A stretch of DNA of 49,576 nt, taken from Escherichia phage HK639. A program made the translations under genes and the position numbers. The notes beneath the pieces were generated by a model that did no database searches, was not told the DNA's origin, and was given only the letters and a program-made list of their open reading frames with translations. The stretch is from sequence record NC_016158.1. One strand, given 5' to 3'. Positions 51 to 47,903 of this stretch are shown here, piece after piece (the stretch's first letter is position 1; each line of letters opens with the position of its first letter).

Positions 51-701
51 ATGGCAAAACCGGACTGGGAGGCCATCGAGACGGCGTACCGGGCCGGAGT
101 GATGTCCCTCCGAGAAATAGCGTCACAGCACGGTATCAGTGAAGGCGCTATCCGTAAGCGTGCCAAGCGCGACGACTGGTCGCGTGACCTCAATGCGAAG
201 ATTCAGCAAAAGGCTGATGATCTGGTACGCAAACAGGAGGTACGCAAGCAGGTACGCAACGAAAGCACTTTGACCGAGCGCGTACTGATAGAGGCGACTG
301 CCGAGGTAATTGCCACGGTACGCATGGAGCACCGGGGAGACATCCGCCGGGCTCGTGAATTGACCAACACGCTATTCGATGAACTTGGTGCGCAGTGCGC
401 AGATGTAAGCGCGCTCGAGCAGTTGGGCGACATCATGTTTGATCCCGACGATAAAGGCCGGGACCGGCTCAATGAAATTTATCAGAAAGTGATCAGCCTG
501 CCTTCCCGCGTTAAATCCATGAAAGACCTGAGCGACAGCCTGAAGACGCTGATCGGCCTCGAGCGTGAGGCATACAGCATCGAGAATAAGGCTGAAACGA
601 AAGAGGTCACCCATAACGTCATGCTGGTGCCAACCAGTGACAACGTGGATGACTGGGAGGCGGCAGCGCAGAAACAACAGGACGGGGTGCTCGGTGGATG
701 A
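51..701 (+). CDS. phage terminase small subunit
   Basis: 216-aa ORF with N-terminal HTH-like segment (SLREIASQHGISEGAIRKRAKRDDW); stop overlaps the start of the large terminase; purine-rich RBS before ATG. Confidence 0.7.
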   Translation: MAKPDWEAIETAYRAGVMSLREIASQHGISEGAIRKRAKRDDWSRDLNAKIQQKADDLVRKQEVRKQVRNESTLTERVLIEATAEVIATVRMEHRGDIRRARELTNTLFDELGAQCADVSALEQLGDIMFDPDDKGRDRLNEIYQKVISLPSRVKSMKDLSDSLKTLIGLEREAYSIENKAETKEVTHNVMLVPTSDNVDDWEAAAQKQQDGVLGG

Positions 702-2269
702 ATTACAAAGCTGTATGGAAGCCACTGCCTGGATCTCAGTCCCTGGCGCTGAGCTGCCCGTGTAACGAAATCCTGTTCGAGGGCACTCGCGGACCGGGCA
801 AGACAGCTGCGCAGTTAGCCAGGTTCAGGCGTAATGTCGGCGTAGGTTATGGCTCGTTCTGGCGCGGCGTCATTTTCGACACCGAGTATAAAAACCTTGC
901 CGACATCATCACTCAGTCGAAGCGCATGTTTCGCCTGTTCAACGACGGTGCGCGCTATCTGTCATCTGCGAGCGAATTGCGATGGGTGTGGCCAACGGGC
1001 GAGGAGCTTCTCTTCCGCTTCGGCAAAGAGGCAGACGACTACTGGGATTTCCACGGTCAGGAATTCCCGTTTATCGGCTTTAACGAGCTGACGAAACAGC
1101 AGTCTCCAGAGTTCTATGAAATGATGTTCTCCTGCCGCCGATCATCGTTCAGGCCGGAAAACTACCCGCTGGAGAATGGCAAGTTATTGAGGCCAATCCC
1201 GCTGGAGACGTTCAGCACGACCAACCCGTTCGGCATCGGGCATACCTGGGTGAAGAAGCGCTTCATTGAGCCAGCGCCGCGCGGAACCGTGCAGCGCGAC
1301 CGGCAAATGGTGTTCAACCCTCAGACAGAACGAGAAGAGGAAATCACGCTGACCCGCGTGGCAATCCACGGCTCGTTCAAAGAGAACCCGTACCTCGATC
1401 CGCAGTACATCGCAACGCTGATGGCCATCAAAGACCCGAATCGCCGTAAGGCGTGGGTTGAGGGCTCGTGGGATGTTACCAGCGGCGGACGTTTCGACCA
1501 TCTGTGGAATGCCTCGCATCATGTCATCAAGCCATTCCGCATACCGGATAGCTGGACGGTCGACCGCTCGCATGACTGGGGCGAATCGAAACCGTTTTCC
1601 AACCTCTGGTGGGCACGATCCGACGGAACCGCCGCAGAACTGCCTGATGGCCGCCAGTTCTGCCCGCCTGCTGGGACGCTGATTCTTATTGGCGAGTGGT
1701 ACGGCTGCCCACCGGACGAGCTGAACAAAGGCCTGAATATGTCATCAACAAACGTCGCTAAGGGCGTTGCCTGGGTAGATAAACGACTGGTGGGCGATGA
1801 ACTTGCTGAGCCTGACGAAATCAAGCTTAACGGGGTGACGCAGGGGCAACTGAACATCATGCCTGGAATCTGTAAGAAGGTTACACCGGGCCCGGCTGAC
1901 AGCGCCATTTACAATACAGGCGATGATGAACTCTCCATTGCGCAGAAGATGGAGTCCCAGGGCGTTAAATGGCTTGAGGCAAACAAAAAGCCGGGATCTC
2001 GCGTTAACGGCGCCGCTCTGTTTGCCGATATGCTCGAAGCTGTCAATGAAGGTAAGAAACTGGAATCCGGCATCCCGGAGAAACCTGCATTTTACGTATT
2101 CGACTACTGCCGTGGCTGGATCAGCCGTGTGCCGGTACTCGTGCGCGACAGTAAAAACCCCGACGATGTAGATACCCAACAGGAAGATCACGACTGGGAT
2201 GCTACCCGATATGCCGTTCTGCATTCACCGCCGAAGAGAGTCGGCAAAGTCACCAATCTGAGGCTCTAA
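698..2269 (+). CDS. phage terminase large subunit (ATPase/nuclease)
   Basis: 523 aa; Walker A-like GTRGPGKT near N-terminus; acidic nuclease-like C-terminal half; position after small terminase. Confidence 0.8.
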   Translation: MNYKAVWKPLPGSQSLALSCPCNEILFEGTRGPGKTAAQLARFRRNVGVGYGSFWRGVIFDTEYKNLADIITQSKRMFRLFNDGARYLSSASELRWVWPTGEELLFRFGKEADDYWDFHGQEFPFIGFNELTKQQSPEFYEMMFSCRRSSFRPENYPLENGKLLRPIPLETFSTTNPFGIGHTWVKKRFIEPAPRGTVQRDRQMVFNPQTEREEEITLTRVAIHGSFKENPYLDPQYIATLMAIKDPNRRKAWVEGSWDVTSGGRFDHLWNASHHVIKPFRIPDSWTVDRSHDWGESKPFSNLWWARSDGTAAELPDGRQFCPPAGTLILIGEWYGCPPDELNKGLNMSSTNVAKGVAWVDKRLVGDELAEPDEIKLNGVTQGQLNIMPGICKKVTPGPADSAIYNTGDDELSIAQKMESQGVKWLEANKKPGSRVNGAALFADMLEAVNEGKKLESGIPEKPAFYVFDYCRGWISRVPVLVRDSKNPDDVDTQQEDHDWDATRYAVLHSPPKRVGKVTNLRL

Positions 2270-2273
2270 TTCC

Positions 2274-3674
2274 ATGCCTGACATTTCAACACCCAATCTG
2301 GACTATGGGAACATGGTCGAGGCGTGGGATATCAACGATGCCCTGATGGGCGGCACGCTCTATATGCGACAGCTGGGCGAGCAATATCTACCGCGCTGGC
2401 CGAAAGAAGACAAAGAGGACTACAAAAAACGCCTCGCCGTGGCCACGCTTCTGCCAGCCTACGAAGAGACCATTAAGCAAAACATCGGGCGTGTATTTGC
2501 TGAGCCCATTAAGCTTGCCGAGAATGTGCCGGATCAGCTGCGAGAGTATGCGAAAAACTTCGACCTTGAGGGGACGCGCCTGGACGTATGGGCGCAGGCA
2601 TTCTTCGGTCTGGCGATGCAGTATGGCCTCTCCCACGCGCTGGTGGATTATCCCAGGGTGGACACCGAAAAGGTGAAAACCAAAGCGGAAGAGAAAGCTA
2701 CTGGCGCGCGCCCATACGTCACCATGCTCAATCCCCGGCAGGTGATCGGATGGAAGTCGAAAATGGTAGACGGCAAAGTGGTGCTGACCGAGCTGCGTAT
2801 CAAAGAGGTAGTTATCGAGGACGGCGACGACTTCGGGCAGACAAAGGTCGAGCAAATTCGTTATCTGACACCTGGAATGGTGCAAATCTACCGCAAGTCG
2901 AAAGGTATCGATGGGGCGGCGAACTGGGAGAAGTTCGACGAATGGACAACATCTCGTAAGGACATAACACTGGTGACGCTCTACACCAAGCGCACCGGGT
3001 TTATGTGTGGTTCACCTCCACTGCTCAATATGGCTCTGCTGAACATCAAGCACTGGCAGAGTCAAAGCGAGCAGGACAACATTCTGCATGTCGCCAGGGT
3101 GCCGTTGCTCACGGTGTTCGGTTTGGAAGAGGGGCAAGAGCTGATAATTGGCTCGTCTTCAGCTACGTCGTTCACTGATCGGCAAAAGCAGGGTCTGGAA
3201 TACGTCGAGCATACAGGCTCCTCCATCGGTGCTGGTAAAGAGTCGCTGGCAGAACTTGTGGAGCAGATGCGCCAGGCTGGTGCGAAGCTGCTGCGTACGG
3301 AAAACACCTCTACCAAATCGGTAGACCAGACCTCCGAAGAGAAAATGCAGGAGCAGTCACCGCTCTACACCATGGCTACCAGCCTTGAAGATGCGATCGA
3401 CAACATTCTGCAAATCATGGCCGAGTACATCGGCGAGAAAGATGGTGGCAACGTTGATGTTCGCACCGAGCTGGATGTTGAGTCGAAAGAATTCAACCCG
3501 CCTGCTGCACTGGCTATTCAGTCCCTGCGCCAGGGCGGTGACCTTCGCCGTATCGATGCGATTAAAGCCCTGCAAAAACTCAACCTGATTGATGCCGATG
3601 CGGATCCTGATACGGTGCTGAGCGAGTTGCTGGCCGAGTCTGCGTCGCTGAGTGAACCACCGCCGGGGGTGTGA
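2274..3674 (+). CDS. portal protein
   Basis: 466 aa, directly downstream of large terminase and upstream of head morphogenesis gene; size and position typical of portal. Confidence 0.6.
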   Translation: MPDISTPNLDYGNMVEAWDINDALMGGTLYMRQLGEQYLPRWPKEDKEDYKKRLAVATLLPAYEETIKQNIGRVFAEPIKLAENVPDQLREYAKNFDLEGTRLDVWAQAFFGLAMQYGLSHALVDYPRVDTEKVKTKAEEKATGARPYVTMLNPRQVIGWKSKMVDGKVVLTELRIKEVVIEDGDDFGQTKVEQIRYLTPGMVQIYRKSKGIDGAANWEKFDEWTTSRKDITLVTLYTKRTGFMCGSPPLLNMALLNIKHWQSQSEQDNILHVARVPLLTVFGLEEGQELIIGSSSATSFTDRQKQGLEYVEHTGSSIGAGKESLAELVEQMRQAGAKLLRTENTSTKSVDQTSEEKMQEQSPLYTMATSLEDAIDNILQIMAEYIGEKDGGNVDVRTELDVESKEFNPPAALAIQSLRQGGDLRRIDAIKALQKLNLIDADADPDTVLSELLAESASLSEPPPGV

Positions 3675-5773: not shown

Positions 5774-6910
5774 ATGTCTAATACTTTGACTGGCCTGATC
5801 CCGACCATTTATACGGCGCTTAACCGCGTTTCACGTGAGCAGGTAGGTTTTATCCCGGCAGTGGCTCGTAACGCTAAGGCCGATGCCGCGGCCAAAGACC
5901 AAACCGTGACCGCACCGGTAGCACCAAAAACCACCACCGTTGATATCACTCCGGCGGCAACCGCGCCAAACGACGGTGATCAGAACATTGGTACCGTGGA
6001 TGTCAAAATCACCAAATCAAAAATGGCTCCGGTCAAATGGAACGGTGAAGAACAGTTGGCGATGGGGCCATCAGGTAACTACGACGTTATCCTTGCCGAT
6101 CAGTTTTCTCAGGCCTTCCGCGCGCTGAGCAACGAAATGGACGCAGACCTGGCTGCGCTGTTCTACAAATCTTCCCGTGCAGTTGGTTCACCAAAAGAGA
6201 CGCCATTCAGCATTAAAGACGATCTGTCTGATGCAGCGCTGGCGCGTCAGATTTTAGTGGATAACGGTGCACCGACTACCGACATGCGCATGGTGCTGGG
6301 CGGCGAAGCGATGGCCTCAATTCGCGGAAAACAGTCGGTTCTGTTCAAAGCGAACGAAGCAGGTACCGATCAGCTTCTGCGTGAAGGTATTATTGGCCGC
6401 GTGATGGGCTTTAACCTTCACGAATCCGCCAACATCAAGCGCACAGCGAAAAGTACGGCGGCGGGCTATACGGTCAACGGCGCGAAGCAGGAAGGCGATA
6501 TCATCATCGCTATCTCCACAGGTACCGGTGGTATCGCAGCAGGCACTGCGGTTAAGTTCGATGGCGACTTTAACCAGTATCTGGTTGTGGCCTCTACGGC
6601 CTCAAGCATCACTATCGCAGCACCGGGACTGCGCCAGGATCTGGCAGACCAGACAGCTATTACCGTTGTGAGCGAATTCACACCAAACATGGCATTCGAC
6701 CGCAATGCTTTCCTGCTGGCGTGCCGCACCCCGGCAATGCCAAAAGGCGGAGACACCGCCGACGATGTGATGAATGTTACCGACCCGGTGTCAGGCATCA
6801 CCTTCCAGATCGCGCTCTATCGCCAGTACCGTCAGGTGCGTTACGAGGTTGGCGTGGCATGGGGTGTGGCATCTGTTCAGCCTGAACACTCCACCATCAT
6901 CATGGGTTAA
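5774..6910 (+). CDS. major capsid protein
   Basis: 378 aa; RBS AAAGGA; follows scaffold gene; strong terminal codon usage consistent with highly expressed structural gene. Confidence 0.7.
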   Translation: MSNTLTGLIPTIYTALNRVSREQVGFIPAVARNAKADAAAKDQTVTAPVAPKTTTVDITPAATAPNDGDQNIGTVDVKITKSKMAPVKWNGEEQLAMGPSGNYDVILADQFSQAFRALSNEMDADLAALFYKSSRAVGSPKETPFSIKDDLSDAALARQILVDNGAPTTDMRMVLGGEAMASIRGKQSVLFKANEAGTDQLLREGIIGRVMGFNLHESANIKRTAKSTAAGYTVNGAKQEGDIIIAISTGTGGIAAGTAVKFDGDFNQYLVVASTASSITIAAPGLRQDLADQTAITVVSEFTPNMAFDRNAFLLACRTPAMPKGGDTADDVMNVTDPVSGITFQIALYRQYRQVRYEVGVAWGVASVQPEHSTIIMG

Positions 6911-19171: not shown

Positions 19172-22100
19172 ATGGAAGCGATCACTGGTGCAAAGGGTGG
19201 CAGCCAGAAGCAGCACACACCTGTAGAACAGCCCGATTCGGCGCAGTCAATGGCGCGCTGCCGCATGCTGCTGGCGCTCGGGGAGGGGGAGTTTGCTGGT
19301 GGCCTGGATGCGACCCGGATATTCCTGGACGGTACGCCGTTGGGAAACCCCGACGGAACGATGAATTTTGAAAATGTGTCATGGGATTTCCGGCCTGGCA
19401 CACAGACCCAGACACCAATACCGGGATTCCCTGCAGTCGAGAATGAAACTACGGTTGGCGTATCGCTGACAAAGGCCACACCATGGACGCGCGCGCTGAG
19501 TAATACCCAGATTGACGCGGTTCTCGTTCGTATTGGTATACCTGGATTGCAGCAGCAGGAAAACGACGGAGACATTGTCGGAACTACTGTCACATATCAC
19601 ATCGACATTGCGGTTGATGGCGGGGCATACCAGACAATGCTAACCAAAACGGTTACTGAAAAACTCAGTTCGCTGTATGAGCTGACCCATCGCATTAATC
19701 TTCCGAAAGCCAGTACGGGCTGGCAGATTCGCGTGGTACGCGACACTGACGACAGCACCAGCCAGATGTTGCAGAATAAAACGCAGGTACAGGCAATCAC
19801 TGAGGTGATTGATGCGCGCCTGCGCTATCCCCATACGGCGCTGCTGTATGTGTCGTTCAACGCCAAATCGTTCAACAATATCCCGAAGATTTCCTGTAAA
19901 CCGAAGGGGCGTATTATCCGCATCCCTTCGAATTACGATCCGATAGCCCGAACCTATAGCGGCACATGGGACGGGACATTTAAGTGGGGCTGGACGAATA
20001 ACCCAGCGTGGATCTGGTTCGATGTGCTCACTGAGCCGCGTTTCGGACTTGGCCGCCGTGTGACGCCAGAAATGCTCGATAAATGGGAGCTTTATCGCAT
20101 AGCGCAGCGCTGTGATCAGCTTGTACCAGATGGAAAAGGCGGTAGCGGTACAGAGCCGCGCTTCATGTTTGACGTGTACATTCAGGCGCAGGCCGACGCC
20201 TGGCAGGTGATCAAGGATATCGCCGCAGGCTTTAACGGCATGACGTTCTGGGGCAACAACATGTTCAATGTTGTCTCTGACATGCCGGCGGACACGTCGA
20301 AGCTGCAAATCCTTACCCGCGCTTCGGTGGTGGGCAAGCCGGTTTACTCGAGCGGCAGTGAAAAGACCCGCTTCTCCAGCGCGCTGATTAACTTCAGCGA
20401 CCCTGACAATCACTATCAGGACCGCACGACAGCGGTGATGTTCCCGGATCTGGTTAAGCAGTTCAAGTTTAAGCAGACGCAGATCACCGCAATCGGCTGT
20501 ACGCGCGAGAGCGAAGCGCAGCGCCGTGGCGGGTGGGCGGTGTATTCCAACTCACTCGACAGGATGATTACGCTACAGACCGGGCTTGATGGCTATGTCT
20601 ACGTGCCGGGTACCGTATTTGCATTTGCCGACGAACGCCTTTCAGGGCGTGTTTATGGTGGGCGCATCACCGAGTACAATTCCGGGATTAAGGCAGTGAC
20701 CACTGACCGCGGTACCAGCGCGGTGGCTGGCGATACACTGATGATTCGCACGCAGGGCGGTGCCGTTGAAAGCAGAGTGATTCAGGCCGTAAACGGCACG
20801 CAGCTGGTGGTTGCCACGCCTTTCACGGCAGAGCCGTTACCAAACGCTGTATTCGTCATCGATGCCGGGCAGTTGCGCCTGCAATACTTCCGCGTTACGA
20901 ACCTGAGATTTGATGATGAAGAAAACACCTTCACAATCACCGGGGCTGAGTATAACGCATCAAAATATGATGCGGTCGATAACAATGCCCGCCTGGATGC
21001 GCCGCCAGTCAGCCTGTTACCGACTGGTGTTGTAAGCCAGCCTGCCAACATCGCGGTAGCGAGCTATGACGCAGTACGCCAGGGGCAGCGAGTGGCCACC
21101 TTGACTGCATCATGGGATGCGCCGGTCGACAAGAACGGCAAACCACAGGCAGATGTCATAGCCTATCGCGTGCAGTGGAAGCGCGGCGACAATGAGTGGG
21201 TTAACGTGCCGGATACAGGGCTGCGCAATATCGAAGTTCCTGGCATCTTCGATGGTGATTATCTGGTACGTGTACGCGCCATCAACTCAGGAGGTGCGTC
21301 TAGCCTCTGGACAACGTCTGCTCTTACACACCTAAAGGGGCGCGCTGGTGACGTTCCAAAACCTGTAGGGCTAACAGCATCTGAAGATGTCGTTTTTGGG
21401 ATCAATATCACTTGGGGATTCCCTGCTGATACCTCAGACACATTAAGCACAGAGCTGCAATACAGCGTTACGGCTGACGGTTCAAATCCTATTTTGTTGG
21501 CGTCTGTACCTTATCCTCTAAAACTTTATCAGCAGATGGGCCTTAAGGCCGGTCAGGAATTCTGGTACCGCGCACAGCTGGTTGACCGAACCGGTAACGA
21601 ATCAGGATACACAGAATGGGTTCGTGGGCAGGCAAGTATAGATGTTTCTGATGTCTCCAGTGTGATTTTGGAGGACATGAAGGAATCTCAGACGTTCAAA
21701 GACCTGATCGAGAGCGCAGTGGACAGCAATGCAAAAATTGCTGGCATGGCTGATGATATCCTGCAGGCGAACAATCAGCTCGAACAGCAGGCGCTGGATA
21801 TTCAGGAAAATTCTGATGCTCTGGCGCAAGCTGCGGTGAAGATCGACGAAATGTCTGTCTCCATGGACGGCATGACGGGAGGCGTGAAGAACTCGGCCAT
21901 AGCTATCATCCAGGGCAACCTCGCACAGGTGGCAGCGCGTAAAACACTGACTGCGTCGGTCGCCGGTAACAGCGCGCAGCTTGACCGAATTGATGAAGTG
22001 ATCGTTAACGAGAAGGAGGCAACGGCGCGCGCTCTGCTGAGCCTGCAGACGGACGTTAACGGCAACAAGGCATCCATCAACAGCCTCAATCAGACGTTCT

Positions 22101-22636
22101 CGGATTACCAGCAGGCTATGGCCACGCAGGTAAACAGCATCACGGCGACCGTCAATGGCCACACTTCTGCGATCACCACCAACGCGCAGGCCATTGCCAA
22201 CGTCAACGGCGACCTGAAGGCGATGTACAACATCAAGGTTGGTGTCTCCAGCAACGGGCAGTATTACGCCGCGGGGATGGGGATCGGCGTGGAGAATACG
22301 CCATCCGGCATGCAGTCGCAGGTTATCTTCCTGGCTGATCGCTTCGCAGTCACCACGGCGGCCGGAAACAGCGTGGCTTTGCCATTCGTGATCCAGAACG
22401 GGCAGACATTCATCCGGGCCAGCTTCATTCAGGACGGCACCATTGACAACGCCAAAATCGGCAACTATATCCAGTCGAATAATTATGTGGCTGGATCTGC
22501 AGGCTGGAAGCTTGATAAGGGAGGGACGTTCGAAATTAACGGTGTGGCCGGGGGCGGGAGGATGCTGATATCCAGCACTCTCATTCGCATCTACGACAGC
22601 AACAACGTGCTGCGCGTCAGAATGGGGTTATGGTAA
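19172..22636 (+). CDS. J: tail tip / host specificity protein J
   Basis: 1154 aa; position after I; lambda J-like length and architecture with fibronectin-like repeats and C-terminal receptor-binding region. Confidence 0.85.
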   Translation: MEAITGAKGGSQKQHTPVEQPDSAQSMARCRMLLALGEGEFAGGLDATRIFLDGTPLGNPDGTMNFENVSWDFRPGTQTQTPIPGFPAVENETTVGVSLTKATPWTRALSNTQIDAVLVRIGIPGLQQQENDGDIVGTTVTYHIDIAVDGGAYQTMLTKTVTEKLSSLYELTHRINLPKASTGWQIRVVRDTDDSTSQMLQNKTQVQAITEVIDARLRYPHTALLYVSFNAKSFNNIPKISCKPKGRIIRIPSNYDPIARTYSGTWDGTFKWGWTNNPAWIWFDVLTEPRFGLGRRVTPEMLDKWELYRIAQRCDQLVPDGKGGSGTEPRFMFDVYIQAQADAWQVIKDIAAGFNGMTFWGNNMFNVVSDMPADTSKLQILTRASVVGKPVYSSGSEKTRFSSALINFSDPDNHYQDRTTAVMFPDLVKQFKFKQTQITAIGCTRESEAQRRGGWAVYSNSLDRMITLQTGLDGYVYVPGTVFAFADERLSGRVYGGRITEYNSGIKAVTTDRGTSAVAGDTLMIRTQGGAVESRVIQAVNGTQLVVATPFTAEPLPNAVFVIDAGQLRLQYFRVTNLRFDDEENTFTITGAEYNASKYDAVDNNARLDAPPVSLLPTGVVSQPANIAVASYDAVRQGQRVATLTASWDAPVDKNGKPQADVIAYRVQWKRGDNEWVNVPDTGLRNIEVPGIFDGDYLVRVRAINSGGASSLWTTSALTHLKGRAGDVPKPVGLTASEDVVFGINITWGFPADTSDTLSTELQYSVTADGSNPILLASVPYPLKLYQQMGLKAGQEFWYRAQLVDRTGNESGYTEWVRGQASIDVSDVSSVILEDMKESQTFKDLIESAVDSNAKIAGMADDILQANNQLEQQALDIQENSDALAQAAVKIDEMSVSMDGMTGGVKNSAIAIIQGNLAQVAARKTLTASVAGNSAQLDRIDEVIVNEKEATARALLSLQTDVNGNKASINSLNQTFSDYQQAMATQVNSITATVNGHTSAITTNAQAIANVNGDLKAMYNIKVGVSSNGQYYAAGMGIGVENTPSGMQSQVIFLADRFAVTTAAGNSVALPFVIQNGQTFIRASFIQDGTIDNAKIGNYIQSNNYVAGSAGWKLDKGGTFEINGVAGGGRMLISSTLIRIYDSNNVLRVRMGLW

Positions 22637-24023: not shown

Positions 24024-25277
24024 ATGCTTTATAACACCGGCACCATCGCAATTAACGGAAATACCGCAACCGGCACCGGCACAAACTGGACAGCTCCCGC
24101 CAGCCAGGTTCGCTCTGGCCAGACAATTATCGTCATGTCTAACCCGGTGCAGCTGTTCCAGATTTCATCCGTGAACAGCGCCACGTCAATGACGGTTACG
24201 CCTGCCGCTTCCCCGGCGCTGAGCGGCCAGAAGTATGGAATTCTTGTGTCGGACATTATCTCAGTCGACGGCCTGGCACAGGCCATGTCGCAGCTCATCA
24301 AAGAGTACGACGAGAACATTGGCGCGTGGGAGACGTTCGCTACTACCTCAGCAAACCAGACCATCACCGTAACCATCAACGGCACCCCTGTAACGATCCC
24401 CGGCATCGGCAAACTAGCTCTGAAAGGGAGTAACGGTGCGCTGGCTGTTGCTGACGGCGGAACCGGAGCAACTAAGGCAGAAGACGCTCGCACAAACCTC
24501 GGTTTGGGAAGTAGCGCCACGAGGAACGCATACAGCTCCACCGGGGATATGCTTTCAGTAGGTGATTTTGGATTAGGATCGACAAGTGCTCCCGGACTTA
24601 ATGATGCTAATTTGGGACGTCAGACAGCTTTCTCTGCGGCTGGCGGTGCTGGTGCAGTTAACTTTTTCGATGCGTATTCTCCGTTGCTATCAATGGTAAG
24701 AACCACTTCAACAGCGGTACAGATGCAGATAACAGCAGCTGGTAAATCTGCAGTTAGAGGGTGTAATGCGGGGAACTGGACACCGTGGTACGAACTTTAT
24801 TCAACTCAAAATACAACGAAATCCAGCGATGGAACCCTTAAGGCTGCGTCTCCGGTTGCCCGTATCGTAGCGAGCCAGGAAGCCTGCCAGCGCGCCGATA
24901 TAGCGGAGGATGGCTTCTCCTGGTGCGGCTGTGGGACGGCGAACACTGAGGCGGAGGGAATAACCATTTCTCGCCTCGAGGTGGGCGTTTACGTGCTGGC
25001 AGGTTCGGCAGGCTTGGCGTCCGAGGGATGGCAGCTACTGCCACCAATGGACCCCGGCGGCATGGGAGAGCTGGGAGTGGTTGAGGCAGAGCAAACCGAT
25101 AGCGGCGAGCTGACAATCCGTCTTTTCAAGCGAAAATATATCCTGAGCGATGAAGGTGAGGTCATCAAAACCAAAGGTGAACCGATTGACGTCCCGGCGA
25201 ACAGCTGGATCGATGTTCGTCTGGATATGCCAGCGGATAGCATCTGGAACACCAAAGTTTCCGGTTCTTCTCTCTAA
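24024..25277 (+). CDS. side tail fibre protein
   Basis: 417 aa; conserved phage tail-fibre N-terminal region followed by Gly/Ala/Thr/Ser-rich repeats; RBS GAGGT. Confidence 0.7.
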   Translation: MLYNTGTIAINGNTATGTGTNWTAPASQVRSGQTIIVMSNPVQLFQISSVNSATSMTVTPAASPALSGQKYGILVSDIISVDGLAQAMSQLIKEYDENIGAWETFATTSANQTITVTINGTPVTIPGIGKLALKGSNGALAVADGGTGATKAEDARTNLGLGSSATRNAYSSTGDMLSVGDFGLGSTSAPGLNDANLGRQTAFSAAGGAGAVNFFDAYSPLLSMVRTTSTAVQMQITAAGKSAVRGCNAGNWTPWYELYSTQNTTKSSDGTLKAASPVARIVASQEACQRADIAEDGFSWCGCGTANTEAEGITISRLEVGVYVLAGSAGLASEGWQLLPPMDPGGMGELGVVEAEQTDSGELTIRLFKRKYILSDEGEVIKTKGEPIDVPANSWIDVRLDMPADSIWNTKVSGSSL

Positions 25278-25391
25278 CTCCAGTGACAACCTGCCGAAAT
25301 TCAGCCTTAAAAATTAATAGGCGAACCCAAATAGATCTACACCTCCTTTAATAGTACTGTATGTATAAACAGTGCTAAAGAGGTGCAGAAC

Positions 25392-25781
25392 ATGGGATTC
25401 CCATCTCCAGCAGCAGACTATGTTGAAGATCGCATATCGCTCGACAAACGGCTTATCGCGCATCCGGCAGCCACGTACATGATGATAGCGGGCTCTACAT
25501 ACCTGCGAGCTGGCATAATGAAGGGCGCAATGCTTATCGTCGACTCGTCGCTGACACCAAAAGACGGTTCTCTTCTGGTGTGCGCTATAGACGGTGAGTT
25601 CAGGATTATGCGTTACAGGACGCATCCGCAGCCTTGTCTGGAAAACCCTGAAAATGGAAGGAGGGAGTCGTTACCGTTGAAAGACGATGTGTCGGATACA
25701 TCGCGGCCGGTGTTTGGGGTGATCACCTACAGCATCAACGATGCGCGTTCTGGTGAGTTCGACGACTGCCCGGTGATGTAA
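25392..25781 (+). CDS. UmuD'-like protein (S24 LexA/UmuD fold, begins at position equivalent to UmuD cleavage site)
   Basis: [29 protein letters not shown] resembles E. coli UmuD residues from Gly25 ([28 protein letters not shown]); C-terminal VFGVITY resembles VFGVVIHV; GDSM and VKKL catalytic motifs not conserved (GSTY, IMRY). Confidence 0.65.
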   Translation: [129 protein letters not shown]

Positions 25782-25938
25782 TGGGGAAACTGCATAGCTA
25801 TGCCAGGCTGCATGGCTGTGCATTCTCTGTGTCACAGATGTGTCATGCATTAATGAGCAATAACGAAACGCGGAAGCATAGAACGACACGCAATGACACA
25901 AATCCGGCGCGAGCGCGGAAAAACTAATGATATTACAG

Positions 25939-26006
25939 TGTGTTAAATGGTGCTCTACGTTCTTCTAAGCCGTAGGTCGTAGGTTCGAATCCTACAGGGC
26001 GTGCCA
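25939..26006 (+). other. tRNA-Arg(UCU)-like 3' segment ending in CCA; candidate attP core
   Basis: Anticodon-loop-like CTTCTAA, T-arm GTAGG-TTCGAAT-CCTAC, acceptor AGGGCGT-G-CCA; no matching 5' acceptor strand upstream; 15 nt from int stop. Confidence 0.55.
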
Positions 26007-26021
26007 TTTAAAAACAGTCGC

Positions 26022-27185
26022 TTACGCCAGTTTCAAGCCAGCCTGATTTTCTCCTTGTGTCGTATTTGTGTCATGGTTGCCAAAAATGGCATCAATTTTC
26101 CGTGCGTGTTCGCTTAAGTGGTTCGGTGCCAGGTGAGCGTATCGACGTACCATTTCGATGGACTCCCAGCCGCCCATTTCTTGCAGAACTGACAACGGAA
26201 CGCCGGACTGAATTAACCAGCTCGCCCAGGTATGCCGGAGGTCATGAAAACGGAAGTCTTCTATACCCGCTCTTTCCAGTCCAATGCGCCAGGCGACATT
26301 GTCATCCACTCGCATTTTGCGGACAGCCGGAGTGACGGTTTTATCCGGGCGCGTTGATGGCTTCGTGTGAACGAATACCCACCTGGAACTTTTCCCGATC
26401 TGATCCCTTAACACCCTGCATGCGGTATCATTCAGAGCCACGCCGATAGCCTTGCCCGCCTTCGCGTTCTCCGGATTTACCCATGCAACCTTTCTCTGCA
26501 TATCGACCTGCTGCCACTCCAGATCAATGATGTTGGAGCGGCGCAGGCCGGTTGCCAGTGCAAATATCACCACCGGCTTTATCGACTCCGGCATGCAGGA
26601 GATAAGCCGTTCTGCCTCGTCCCTGGTCAGCCATCGGATGCGTTTGCTGATCGGCTTTTTCGTTTTTATAACCGGGGCCGTTTTAATCCAGCCCCAGTCA
26701 TTAGCCGCAGCCTTGAACAGAGATCGCATGAAAGAAAGGTGCTGACTCTTTGTGGCCTGGCTTACCGGTTTCTCAACATACGGAGGCGGTTCCTTCCCCC
26801 GGCGTATAGCCGCGTCCCTGCGCGACTCCCAGACCTGAATATGCTTACGGTTGACCATCTTCGAAACAGCCTCATGAACCTGATCAGCTGTGATGGTTGA
26901 AATATCCCGGCCGGAGAAATGCCGCAGGAAATATTCGATTTTGGTCTTATCGTCATCGAGTGACCGCTTATGCTCCTTCTCACGGAGCCACCTGATGCAA
27001 CATTCCTCAAACGTCCTCGTCGGTAGTTCCCCAATTTTATCCACCCGCCACGCTTCAGCCTTCAGCTTGTCGTGCAGCTCCTGCGCTTGTTTCTTGTCCC
27101 CCGTACCAAGAGATCGTCTAATTCTTTTCCCTGACGGCGTAACGAAATGACAGTGCCAGACGCCGCCTCTGAGGGTGATTGACAT
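26022..27185 (-). CDS. int: tyrosine integrase
   Basis: 387 aa; C-terminal catalytic signature [39 protein letters not shown] (R..H..R..Y). Confidence 0.9.
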
Positions 27186-27397
27186 AAAATTTCTCCTTTA
27201 TGTTCACCCGCGCTCGCAGGAACAGGATCGCGCGGGTCATGTAAATACGCAATACAGGCAACGTCGGTCGTGCGGTATTTGTTCCCGATCTTCTTCCCGG
27301 CCAGCTGCCCCGAATCGATAAGACGGTAAACAGTTCTCGGTGAGACTTTCAGGAGTTTCGCTGCCTTTTGCGCAGTGAGTGGCTCTGCTGTAACCAT
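27062..27397 (-). CDS. xis: excisionase (HTH)
   Basis: HTH segment [28 protein letters not shown]; immediately upstream of int; 3' end overlaps int start in another frame, so true stop/length uncertain. Confidence 0.65.
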
Positions 27398-33693: not shown

Positions 33694-33763
33694 TGGTGGA
33701 GTGCTCCGGATTCGAACCGAAGTTTTCATGGGTGATCAGTCCATGCAGGCCCAGCCACACCCC
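33694..33763 (-). other. tRNA-like element (T-arm, acceptor 3' strand, CCA) of non-canonical structure
   Basis: Minus strand reads GGGGTGT...TTCGG-TTCGAAT-CCGGA-GCACTCC-A-CCA; 5' GGGGTGT can pair with 3' GCACTCC via two G-U pairs; only 35 nt between, so no canonical D/anticodon arms. Confidence 0.3.
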
Positions 33764-36291: not shown

Positions 36292-36981
36292 TCAAAGCTT
36301 GTTGTAAGCAATGGACTCATGGATCAGCGCCTTACCCATGATGTACAGCTGGTCCTGATTTTCTTCTGTCACATACCAGTCTTTGTACGCCGGGTTATCG
36401 GAAAGTACAGCCAACTGCAGACCCTGCATTTGCAGGCGCTTAACGTGGAAGTGCTGCCCGAAGACAAACGCATACACCCCGTCAACTTTGAAGTTCCTCA
36501 CTGAAACGTCAAAGAAGAGGCGATCGCCAGACTGTATTGTCGGGCACATGCTGTCGCCGTCTACGGTCATCACCTTCACATCATTTTGAGTGCGGTTCCC
36601 GAAAAGAGATCTGGCATGCTCAGTTGTGAACTCAATAGCATGCAGGACCTCAACAAATTCAGAAATCATAAAAGACCCCGGACCAGCGCTTACTTTCAGG
36701 TCTAAAACATCAACCCGAAAGACATCAATTGTTTCCGAGACCGGTTGGGCCGCCGATGGCACATTACCATCAATCCGCATTTCCCCCACTCCAGAACTAA
36801 GCCATTCCGGCCTTACACCCAGAGCATGAGCTAGCTCGACCATCTTACGGCTGCCGCTCGTTTTACCTGATGTCATCTTTTGAATTGCAGGCTGGGATAT
36901 ACCGACTTTATCAGCCAACTGTCCTTGAGATATGTCAGCGGCCGACATAGCCGCGTTCAGTCGTTCTGCAAATGTTTTCAT
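36292..36981 (-). CDS. cI: CI-type prophage repressor (HTH plus S24 peptidase domain)
   Basis: N-terminal HTH QGQLADKVGISQPAIQKMTSGK; C-terminal S24 domain with GDSM motif (VDGDSMCPTI) and conserved Lys region; divergent from cro. Confidence 0.85.
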   Translation of the reverse strand: MKTFAERLNAAMSAADISQGQLADKVGISQPAIQKMTSGKTSGSRKMVELAHALGVRPEWLSSGVGEMRIDGNVPSAAQPVSETIDVFRVDVLDLKVSAGPGSFMISEFVEVLHAIEFTTEHARSLFGNRTQNDVKVMTVDGDSMCPTIQSGDRLFFDVSVRNFKVDGVYAFVFGQHFHVKRLQMQGLQLAVLSDNPAYKDWYVTEENQDQLYIMGKALIHESIAYNKL

Positions 36982-44362: not shown

Positions 44363-44437
44363 GGGTCAGAAGCACAGCGGTTGTGCGTTCGGCTGTTAAC
44401 CGAATGGTCGAAGGTTCGAATCCTTCCTGTCCCGCCA
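44363..44437 (+). tRNA. tRNA-Asn (anticodon GUU), phage-encoded, one U-U mismatch in acceptor stem
   Basis: Manual fold: acceptor GGGTCAG/CTGTCCC, D-stem GCAC/GTGC, anticodon stem TTCGG/CCGAA with loop CTGTTAA, T-arm GAAGG-TTCGAAT-CCTTC, discriminator G, CCA. Confidence 0.6.
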
Positions 44438-44776: not shown

Positions 44777-44806
44777 TTGACTGCAGGAATAAGTTCGGCG
44801 TAATTT
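44777..44806 (+). promoter_or_regulatory. candidate late promoter (pR'-like): TTGACT-18 bp-TAATTT
   Basis: -35 TTGACT and -10 TAATTT resemble recalled lambda pR' hexamers; about 170 nt upstream of a strong terminator. Confidence 0.35.
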
Positions 44807-44952
44807 ATTTCTGTGGTGAATCCTTTCTAAGCGAAAGGGCGTTCCAGCCAACTGCTATCTGCAGGTATGCGCGCGACTTTGCTGGCTGGAGTAGAGTCAC
44901 CGGGAGGCACCCGGCACCATGACAACAACAATACAGTTTCAAATTCCTTGAG

Positions 44953-44981
44953 AGCCTGCCGTAAAAAGCAGGCCTTTTTTT
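44953..44981 (+). terminator. rho-independent terminator (tR'-like candidate)
   Basis: GCCTGC-CGTAAAAA-GCAGGC plus TTTTTTT. Confidence 0.6.
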
Positions 44982-45136
44982 ATGAAATTGCGAACTGCTG
45001 CTACGCTTGAAAAGTGGGTTGAAGATAACTGCCTGATGGTTCTCCTGAACCATAGTGAATCAGCCTGATACTGTCTCACTCTGGTCAGTTAGCAAAACTC
45101 ACGACTACCTACCTTACTTACTAATAGTCACTCATT

Positions 45137-45606: not shown

Positions 45607-45874
45607 CCCGTCAGCTGTCTTTAATGCGTTTATCTGCTCGGTGATCGTCGTCGTTCTGATGTTCTACCAGCGCCATGGTGCCCGGCACCGTCCTTTCATC
45701 TCAATCCTGGCGTATATAACCATCCTGGTTTACGCCGTAATCCCGTGGCAATTCATCTTCGGCCTCTATCGTGACTCCAGTTGGCTGGTGGTGGTGGCAA
45801 ACCTCCTGATATGCGCAGCTGTTATGAAGGTCCGGGGAAATCTGGCGCGTCTGGTTGATCTTCTGAGGCACTAA
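45596..45874 (+). CDS. holin/antiholin-like membrane protein
   Basis: 92 aa, three hydrophobic segments; between holin and endolysin. Confidence 0.5.
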   Translation: MVIDPSAVFNAFICSVIVVVLMFYQRHGARHRPFISILAYITILVYAVIPWQFIFGLYRDSSWLVVVANLLICAAVMKVRGNLARLVDLLRH

Positions 45875-46503
45875 TGAACCAAATACTATTTCAAAAGGCG
45901 GCAGGTATAAGCGCCGGTCTAGCCGTGCGCTGGTTTCACTATATCGATGCTGCAATGAAGGAATTCGGCATAACCGCGCCGCTCGATCAGGCCATGTTTA
46001 TCGCGCAGATGGGCCACGAGTCCGGCGGCTTCACCCGGCTGGTGGAAAACCTGAACTATTCGGCAGAAAACCTGGTATCTACGTTTGGCAAGCATCGCAT
46101 TACTGCACAGCAGGCCGCCGCACTCGGCAGAACGGCAACGCAACCGGCAAATCAAAAAGCGATAGCCAATCTGGTTTATGGCGGTGAGTGGGGCAAAAAG
46201 AACCTGGGCAACCAGGTTGCTGGTGATGGCTGGAAATATCGCGGTCGCGGCCTGAAGCAAATCACCGGGCTCAGCAATTACCGCAACTGTGGCCACGCGC
46301 TGAAGTTGGACCTTGTAACCCAGCCTGAATTGCTGGAACAGGATGAATATGCTGCGCGCTCCGCTGCATGGTTCTATGTCTCGCACGGATGCCTGCTCCA
46401 TTCCGGCGACGTGGAGCGCGTGACGCTGCTTATCAACGGCGGCCGTAACGGGCTGGAACAACGGCGCACCCTGTTTAACCTGGCGAAATCTGTGCTGGTG
46501 TGA
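45874..46503 (+). CDS. endolysin, glycoside hydrolase family 19 (chitinase-like)
   Basis: FIAQMGHESGGF and YRGRGLKQITG motifs typical of GH19 phage endolysins. Confidence 0.75.
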   Translation: MNQILFQKAAGISAGLAVRWFHYIDAAMKEFGITAPLDQAMFIAQMGHESGGFTRLVENLNYSAENLVSTFGKHRITAQQAAALGRTATQPANQKAIANLVYGGEWGKKNLGNQVAGDGWKYRGRGLKQITGLSNYRNCGHALKLDLVTQPELLEQDEYAARSAAWFYVSHGCLLHSGDVERVTLLINGGRNGLEQRRTLFNLAKSVLV

Positions 46504-47249: not shown

Positions 47250-47378
47250 TGCGCATCTCACGCGCATCTCAACGAGAGCCTTTCAGTAAGCGAGCCTGAG
47301 AAATGCCGTTATAGGTGGCGACCTCTCTCGGGCGGCTTTTCTGTGAGACAGGCTCACTTTCTAAAAGGTAAAGACGCT
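47237..47378 (+). promoter_or_regulatory. conserved leader element, copy B (paralogue of 10015..10140)
   Basis: Alignable to copy A; contains direct repeat GCGCATCTCA x2 and inverted repeat GAGCCTG...CAGGCTCAC; ends TTCTAAAAGG before ATGAAT. Confidence 0.6.
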
Positions 47379-47903
47379 ATGAATAATCCGTCAGTTATTC
47401 CGGCCTTTGACTTCCGAGAAATGGTGCAAGCCAAAAACGGAGAGGTCGTTACCACATCCCGAAAAGTTGCCACGTACTTCGGAAAGCGACATGGTGATGT
47501 GCTCAGGAAAATCGAGCAGGTTAAGGCCGATTGCTCAAGTGAGTTTAGCCAACGCAATTTTGCGTCGGCCGATTATATCGATGAGCAGGGTAAGGTTCGC
47601 CCGATGTATAGCCTGACGAAAGATGGCTGGATCATGGTTGTGATGGGGTTCACCGGGAAAGCTGCTGCGGCTATCAAAGAAAGCTACATTTCAGCTTTCA
47701 ATTGGATGTCTGAGCAACTTAGCCGTCGCCTGGCCATGGGTGAAGAAATGCAGCACCGCTACGCCATCAAAGAAACGCGCTCAAAGTTGAAGGGCACGAT
47801 CGGCAGCCGGTTGATGAACGAGCGGAAGAAAGAGAAACGTGTTCTGGCTGTGGAGCATGAGCACATCATGCAGGTAACGCAGCCTGAATTGCTGATCGAA
47901 TAA
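47379..47903 (+). CDS. rha: Rha-family phage regulatory protein
   Basis: ORF 47343..47903 with start at Met13; N-terminal VVTTSRKVATYFGKRHGDVLRKIEQ signature of Rha domain. Confidence 0.7.
   Translation: MNNPSVIPAFDFREMVQAKNGEVVTTSRKVATYFGKRHGDVLRKIEQVKADCSSEFSQRNFASADYIDEQGKVRPMYSLTKDGWIMVVMGFTGKAAAAIKESYISAFNWMSEQLSRRLAMGEEMQHRYAIKETRSKLKGTIGSRLMNERKKEKRVLAVEHEHIMQVTQPELLIE

Follow-up and report, generated by a model that had tools for sequence, protein, structure and literature searches.

The window analysed here, a stretch of phage DNA taken at its full length of 49,576 nucleotides, carries a short tRNA-like segment beside the stop codon of an integrase gene. Is this segment the core of a phage attachment site, the joint of an integrated prophage, or the remnant of a tRNA gene? 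We conclude, with a probability of about 0.93, that positions 25782 to about 26110 form the attP of a temperate lambdoid siphovirus, the core of which duplicates the 3' 45 nt of a host tRNA-Arg(UCU) gene. The attP of the window is an ordinary arrangement of known type: a P22/DLP12-type site in tRNA-Arg(UCU), here matched to Enterobacter. That a phage copy of a tRNA 3' end rebuilds the tRNA gene upon insertion is well known for such arrangements.

The attP core is the 3' part of an Enterobacter tRNA-Arg(UCU)

The center of the locus contains the following features.

25962..26008, plus strand: attP core, 45 nt corresponding to tRNA-Arg(UCU) nt 32-76, plus a TT common to most attB flanks
26022..27185, minus strand: int, coding for a 387-aa tyrosine integrase of the P22/DLP12 subfamily (Pfam Phage_integrase PF00589, 3.6e-40)
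27062..27397, minus strand: xis, excisionase (PHROG 2907, 2.4e-33; Pfam HTH_17, 1.9e-11), with a 124-nt overlap with the start of int

The 45 nt at 25962..26006 (CTTCTAAGCCGTAGGTCGTAGGTTCGAATCCTACAGGGCGTGCCA) comprise the UCU anticodon loop, the 3' strand of the anticodon stem, the variable loop, the T arm, the 3' acceptor strand and CCA. The original prediction had named an anticodon-loop-like CTTCTAA, a T arm and an acceptor-CCA at this site, and reading the sequence places them at 25962..25968 (CTTCTAA), 25979..25995 (T arm, GTAGGTTCGAATCCTAC) and in a GCCA end at 26006. It also had the segment ending 15 nt from the integrase stop, which agrees with the gap between the CCA and the end of the int reading frame (26007..26021). 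Its length estimate of 50-68 nt was too long: the tRNA-derived segment measures 45 nt, and the attP/attB identity, which reaches 26010 with E. mori (TTTA after CCA), totals 47-49 nt.

We searched for the core in a scan of one genome per species. The exact 45-mer (25962..26006) was found in 19 genomes, 14 of them Enterobacter; the remaining carriers are Lelliottia nimipressuralis, Candidatus Erwinia dacicola, Enterobacillus tribolii, Candidatus Symbiopectobacterium and one Enterobacterales bacterium. In all 19 genomes GCGCCCTTAGCTCAGTTGGATAGAGCAACGGC or a close variant of it stands before the 45-mer, which is thus the 3' portion of a complete tRNA-Arg(tct) gene. ARAGORN confirmed complete tRNA-Arg genes at loci L128, L069, L105 and L138. 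The proposed alignment with host tRNA-Arg genes therefore ends in 45 of 45 matches with Enterobacter tRNA-Arg(UCU), beginning at the anticodon loop. By contrast, when the 32 nt upstream of the phage core (25930..25961) are compared by eye with the tRNA 5' half, about 6 of 32 positions match without gaps, and aligning the two takes large gaps and reveals no real similarity.

Three variants of the core differ in their T stem, which reads GTAGG/CCTAC in the window, ACAGG/CCTGT in Klebsiella and ATAGG/CCTAT in the third; the stem stays paired in all three. The host is most likely an Enterobacter species, judging from the core identity and from the close relatives of the phage, although some tail genes are nearest to those of Escherichia phages, which counts against this assignment. 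Integration into argU of an E. coli host was considered and ruled out: across all 5,429 E. coli records the segment is matched at 80-90% only, E. coli argU differs from the 45-nt core at 6 of 45 positions, and a genome search located the int of the window in no E. coli genome.

Lysogen junctions map to the core

We scanned IMG/VR with the core, allowing for the T-stem variants, and obtained 120 stretches. Two context classes among them correspond to prophage junctions: attL, in which a host tRNA 5' half is followed by the core and the int side, and attR, in which the phage left arm is followed by the core and a non-phage flank. The attP context (left arm, core, int side) occurs in free phages, namely in the window and in Enterobacter phage ENT1 (L002). 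Identities between the 300-nt flanks of the four site types are as follows.

Left flank: attP (window) and attR (L116), 89%
Left flank: attB (E. mori, L128) and attL (L069), 91%
Right flank, int side: attP (window) and attL (L069), 100%
Right flank: attB (E. mori, L128) and attR (L116), 99.3%

Together, these four comparisons are the pattern in which POP' x BOB' yields BOP' + POB'. Paired direct copies of the core are found 44-51 kb apart in eight IMG/VR prophage contigs; the copy beside int sits in a full tRNA, and the other copy does not. Two further contigs have shorter core spacings of 24 and 11 kb and are probably remnants. The int-side arm is 96-98% identical at many attL sites. These junctions, which the original prediction had suggested looking for, map both attL and attR to the core, and with the host match of 45 of 45 they bear out its reading of the segment as an attP core.

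The attB flank of E. mori contains about 25 nt that are like an int 3' end. At 2509..2540 of this locus, just after the tRNA-Arg, TTTAGTATCAGGCGTTTACGCCAGCC resembles the phage spacer plus the int 3' end, TTTAAAAACAGTCGCTTACGCCAGTT. This suggests that an earlier integration has left its scar in the E. mori attB, which may then not be virgin. About 200 nt downstream in the same locus there are an odd tRNA-like call and a tRNA-Thr(TGT).

Inside several prophage contigs (L022, L057, L081, L103 and L117), the phage left arm and core run into the 3' terminus of another integrase gene, and the same kind of junction recurs at many Klebsiella-type loci (for example L010, L012 and L033). This arrangement indicates tandem elements stacked at one tRNA-Arg(UCU) gene. 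The flank that follows the tRNA differs among nearly all Enterobacter species representatives, which marks the gene as an integration hotspot.

These data set the integration site to tRNA-Arg(UCU), from nt 32 to the 3' end, both for the phage and for its relatives from Enterobacter and Klebsiella, of which several were deposited unannotated. The core sequence predicts the host genus, and the exact attL and attR signatures allow prophages to be delimited at a very busy integration hotspot. The value of the result lies mainly in annotation, with little beyond.

Strand exchange probably occurs in the anticodon loop

Where within the shared sequence do the strands exchange? The elements around the anticodon loop are listed here.

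25953..25961, plus strand: candidate left core-type Int site, CTCTACGTT, imperfectly inverted relative to GCCGTAGGT
25962..25968, plus strand: presumed overlap (strand-exchange) region CTTCTAA, the anticodon-loop heptamer
25969..25977, plus strand: GCCGTAGGT as candidate right core-type Int site, in the 3' strand of the anticodon stem and the variable loop

In the sequence, CTACG and CGTAG stand as an inverted repeat on either side of the anticodon loop, and CTCTAC is kept in both Enterobacter- and Klebsiella-type arms. Among the left arms listed, four that are unrelated to one another all have the tRNA identity starting at the first base of the anticodon loop (nt 32), as would be expected if the leftmost point of exchange lies there. 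P22-type integrases are reportedly classed as users of the anticodon loop, other integrase subfamilies using the T loop. We consider it likely from these sequence features that strand exchange takes place within the 7-nt loop CTTCTAA. The paired attL and attR cores are uninformative on the crossover, being identical by design of the search pattern and matching the host variant.

It is unlikely, though by some distance the best of the alternatives, that this is a true attP in which exchange occurs elsewhere in the 47-nt identity, at the T loop or the 3' end. Since the identity spans the whole 3' half, any position of exchange is allowed by sequence alone, and the T-stem variants of the phage cores always match the host genus, which would fit an identity requirement in that region. 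Against this stand the exact start of the block at the anticodon loop, not only in the four unrelated left arms but also in DLP12, the inverted repeat provided by the anticodon stem, which is typical of core-type sites, and the class to which the P22-type integrases are said to belong.

The window is a complete phage genome in vegetative order

We examined the gene order of the window, which contains the following features.

51..701: terS
698..2269: terL
2274..3674: portal
5774..6910: major head protein
11530..14604: long ORF, by position and size the probable tape measure
19172..22636: J-like tip protein
24024..25277: tail fibre
25383..25781, plus strand: umuD-like, a UmuD/HumD-like S24 peptidase (PHROG 811, 6e-48) and the last plus-strand gene before attP
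About 25782..26110: attP
36292..36981, minus strand: cI-like repressor
44363..44437, plus strand: tRNA-Asn(GTT), called by ARAGORN and by Rfam (63.9 bits), upstream of the lysis genes
44780..44985, plus strand: STnc100 sRNA family match, 52.6 bits against a gathering score of 47, about 350 nt downstream of tRNA-Asn
45874..46503: endolysin
47343..47903: Rha-like regulator

The claim that the window is a phage genome in vegetative-map order and not a prophage with host flanks holds: the genes run from terS to lysis, and there is one copy of the core. The evidence supports the window being a whole phage genome in terminase-to-lysis order, devoid of host flanks.

We weighed the possibility that the window is instead the end of a prophage, and the site an attL/attR hybrid or a tandem-prophage joint rather than the attP of a free genome. 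In IMG/VR the window is a contig, IMGVR_UViG_2597490004_000001, with a genome identifier of isolate type, joints that resemble attP do exist in prophage contigs (for example L022, L057, L081 and L103), and the ends of the window are confirmed neither by a terminal repeat, a search for which at the window ends found none, nor by a relative that spans them; no phage record covers the end-to-start join, and matches begin at terS. However, the single 49,576-bp contig begins 50 nt before terS and ends past the lysis and Rha genes, it holds one coherent set of phage modules in which no bacterial genes were seen, and the core scan finds a single copy in it. Both flanks of the core are moreover the phage arms of one int/att module, as in Enterobacter phage ENT1. 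A prophage end is thus very improbable, and we continue to read the site as the attP of a free phage genome.

The genome is a mosaic. The segment 21800..24500, which spans the 3' end of the J-like gene, small ORFs and the start of the tail-fibre gene, is 80-93% identical to Escherichia phages Eeyore, LMessi, CharmingMan and others. Such an Escherichia-like segment together with an int module of Enterobacter/Klebsiella type is strong mosaicism, possibly relevant to host range. Unlike the int module, the umuD-like segment (25383..25781) is matched at 86-90% by a few E. coli chromosomes, which places a mosaic boundary at about 25781. Both the tRNA-Asn and the STnc100 match lie in the late-regulatory region.

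The site contains no complete tRNA

ARAGORN called two tRNAs in the window, none of them at the attP core. At the site the Rfam tRNA model gives 16.6 bits, below its gathering score of 29, and the acceptor stem is broken, with unpaired positions. The original prediction had described a segment that lacks a matching 5' acceptor strand and had asked for tRNA detection; in keeping with this, the core carried by the phage is a fragment with no paired acceptor stem, and its 5' side is unrelated to a tRNA. A complete or degenerate tRNA at the site is ruled out by the missing ARAGORN call and the subthreshold Rfam score.

That the segment is a phage tRNA gene in decay, a pseudo-tRNA or fragment that plays no part in recombination, can be dismissed as extremely improbable: the Rfam tRNA model does align end to end with 25938..26003 at its 16.6 bits, the window does hold a real phage tRNA elsewhere (tRNA-Asn, 44363..44437, 63.9 bits) and a tRNA-Arg gene of a Vibrio phage matches it at 98% over 48 nt, but decay would not be expected to leave 45 of 45 nt identical to an Enterobacter gene beside a wholly unrelated 5' side, the point where the identity breaks coincides with prophage junctions in many lysogens, and the placement right after int is the same as in DLP12 and epsilon34.

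We also examined an 8-nt acceptor-like pairing between TTAAATGG (25943..25950) and CCATTTAA (26004..26011). By chance, 361 nt should hold about one such pair, and the complementarity is not kept in Klebsiella-type arms; it was rejected as a mimic of the acceptor stem. Weak Rfam matches near the site (a xanthine riboswitch and snoRNAs) lie far under their gathering scores and were taken as chance. Elsewhere in the window, ARAGORN reports a 70-nt tRNA-Ile(GAT) on the minus strand (33694..33763), where Rfam has no tRNA at the gathering threshold; this call is probably a false positive.

A complete tRNA-Arg(TCT) is carried by Vibrio phage VPG01 (L003, 169..245) and about 25 other Vibrio phages, which are large lytic phages. 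It has 47 of 48 nt in common with the core of the window, the GTAGG/CCTAC T stem included. This likeness probably reflects tRNA conservation across Gammaproteobacteria rather than a link between the phages.

The integrase belongs to the P22/DLP12 subfamily

We compared the integrase with known members of its subfamily. It is 62% identical to DLP12 IntD over 387 of 387 aa with no gaps, 60% identical to P22 Int over 383 aa and 59.7% identical to epsilon34 Int. Closer relatives are the integrases of Enterobacter phage BHUENT6 (99.5%) and of Klebsiella prophages (87%). The catalytic residues of the R...HxxR...Y signature (Arg-215, His-314, Arg-317 and Tyr-349) are invariant in an alignment of five sequences.

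The arms contain conserved TGTGTCR pairs

Both arms of the site contain repeated motifs, which are given here with their surroundings.

25782..25961, plus strand: P arm of attP, a non-coding stretch between the umuD-like stop and the core
25791..25822, plus strand: terminator-like hairpin (13 pairs) with a T-rich tail, from a consensus scan, after the umuD-like gene
25828..25834 and 25839..25845, plus strand: candidate arm-type pair, TGTGTCA twice at 11-bp spacing (repeat family D1)
25884..25890 and 25894..25900, minus strand: candidate arm-type pair in inverted orientation, CGTGTCG and TGTGTCA (inverted repeats I3 and I8)
25932..25940, no strand assigned: conserved block ATTACAGTG, at least 95% conserved in 48 relatives, a possible accessory-factor site
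26056..26062 and 26067..26073, plus strand: candidate P' arm pair, TGTGTCG and TGTGTCA, within the int codons for DTNTTQG

The roughly 180-250 nt directly to the left of the core are 82-89% conserved at the attR sites of Enterobacter lysogens, and in many relatives the similarity begins just past the umuD-like stop. The hairpin at 25791..25822 is kept in sequence in Enterobacter-type relatives and is only suggestive of a terminator, such sites being no more frequent in the region than expected from shuffling.

The original prediction had regarded TGTGTCA direct repeats in the left arm as possible arm-type sites; the repeats are real and the idea is plausible, but they are located at 25828..25845 and not at 25841..25857, about 12 nt further to the left. 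Across the 49.6-kb window TGTGTCR is not enriched, with 12 matches against 11.8 expected from shuffling, and only local clustering, pairing and conservation argue for a function. A stretch of 246 nt around the core holds five of the 12 exact matches, and together with the degenerate CGTGTCG these five make up three pairs, the members of each about one helical turn apart. The P' pair is 80% identical to the P-arm pair of repeat family D1.

Conservation was assessed in 48 non-redundant relatives, the diverged Klebsiella-type arms included. TGTGTC at 25828..25833 is at least 95% conserved, and so are GACACG (25885..25890) and GACACAAA (25895..25902). CGCGG, ATTACAGTG and CTCTAC are likewise kept, though the P arm has otherwise diverged between Enterobacter and Klebsiella types. 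Conservation of the P' pair is confounded by the int coding sequence.

In alignments, the TGTGTCR pairs fall opposite the TGTCCCA-type pairs of P22, epsilon34 and DLP12, and the P' pairs occupy the same aligned columns. TGTCCCA-type arm repeats like those of the three reference systems are absent from the site, where the homologous positions hold TGTGTCR; the TGTCCCA motif is not known to define the subfamily formally. The six motifs are probably arm-type sites that Int would bind. The motif points to a sub-lineage that may have a different arm-site specificity, common to the Klebsiella and Enterobacter relatives. As to IHF and Xis sites in the arms, inspection by eye gives only resemblances to WATCAANNNNTTR with two mismatches, near 25925..25940.

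The P' repeats correspond to int codons 371-377, which encode DTNTTQG here and VPNMSHS, from TGTCCCA repeats, in P22 and DLP12. Because the P' pair lies inside int codons, the tail of the recombinase and its own presumed binding sites share bases and change together. We regard it as an open proposition, at slightly less than even odds, that the arm code changed from TGTCCCA to TGTGTCR in the Enterobacter/Klebsiella branch, accompanied by changes in the N-terminal (WHCHF versus WYASY) and C-terminal (DTNTTQG versus VPNMSHS) parts of Int, while target and layout were kept and the core became a host-genus barcode. In this branch the core carried by the phage always has the compensatory T-stem variant of the host genus. 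If the proposition is true, the core would have been repeatedly re-copied from the host or selected to match it. The difference in arm motif from P22 and DLP12 may be of use in engineering orthogonal tyrosine integrases, and is an incremental variation on a textbook system.

A model for integration and excision

In our proposed mechanism, the 387-aa Int would recombine the phage core with the chromosomal tRNA-Arg(UCU), which serves as attB. Exchange would most probably take place in CTTCTAA, between the imperfectly inverted core-type sites CTCTACGTT and GCCGTAGGT. The 3' half of the host tRNA would thereby be moved to the far end of the prophage (attR), and the phage copy would take over at attL; since this copy is identical to the displaced host half, the tRNA gene stays intact. 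The TGTGTCR pairs, of which the P arm has two and the P' arm has one within the 3' codons of int, are likely bound by the N-terminal domain of Int to build an intasome, in which host factors may also take part. The directionality of excision would come from the overlapping xis.

Comparison with known attachment systems

We compared the attP of the window with other systems. Within the P22/DLP12 integrase subfamily, the member that has been studied by experiment is P22 (attP, Int and Xis), whose target is thrW. Like the window, P22 has a 387-aa Int, an xis that overlaps int and a tRNA 3' fragment right after int; paired direct repeats occur in its P' arm within int codons, and its P arm contains additional pairs. 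TGTCCCG/TGTCCCA pairs are found in P22 and epsilon34 at a place comparable to 25884..25900 of the window. P22 differs from the window in its tRNA-Thr target, its TGTCCCA-type arm repeats and its Int tail (VPNMSHS rather than DTNTTQG).

The argU/intD/xisD region of DLP12 in E. coli K-12 has been described (Lindsey, Mullin and Walker 1989, J Bacteriol 171:6197, as cited in PMC2629481). It shares with the window the tRNA-Arg(UCU) target, a 387-aa Int, an xisD that overlaps the intD start and, within the final int codons, paired arm-type-like repeats. The distance from the end of argU to the intD stop is 15 nt, again as in the window; the prophage boundary likewise falls at tRNA nt 32/33, with the annotation beginning at argU nt 33. 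In contrast to the window, which is a complete phage genome, DLP12 is a defective prophage; its core follows E. coli argU, with 6 of 45 positions different, and its arm motif is GGGACAT/TGTCCCA instead of TGTGTCR.

The attP of epsilon34 has 43 bp of identity to argU (Villafane et al. 2008, PMC2629481). Its putative attP is annotated 16 nt after int and comprises 43-44 nt of the 3' part of argU, similar to the window. Unlike the window, epsilon34 is a P22-like podovirus of Salmonella, its core corresponds to Salmonella argU and its arm motif is TGTCCCA/TGTCACA.

Further counterparts are Klebsiella pneumoniae prophages (for example ST11-VIM1phi8.1, MK448233) and the Enterobacter phages ENT1, BHUENT3 and BHUENT6, in which the int/att module is as in the window. 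They share the P and P' arm motifs, and a tRNA-Arg gene is annotated beside int. Klebsiella-type cores differ from that of the window in having ACAGG/CCTGT in place of GTAGG/CCTAC in the T stem, and the rest of these genomes is only patchily related to the window.

Phage lambda resembles the window in its overall layout, with a core between arms that hold repeated motifs distinct from the core, in the window candidate arm-type sites, with an int-xis operon that reads toward attP, and with the tail-fibre/moron region on one side of the site and the early left operon on the other. Its attP has the arm sites P1, P2 and P'1-3 and a C/O/C' core, and involves IHF, Xis and Fis. Lambda is unlike the window in that its attB is intergenic (gal-bio) and its common core is 15 bp long and includes no tRNA fragment.
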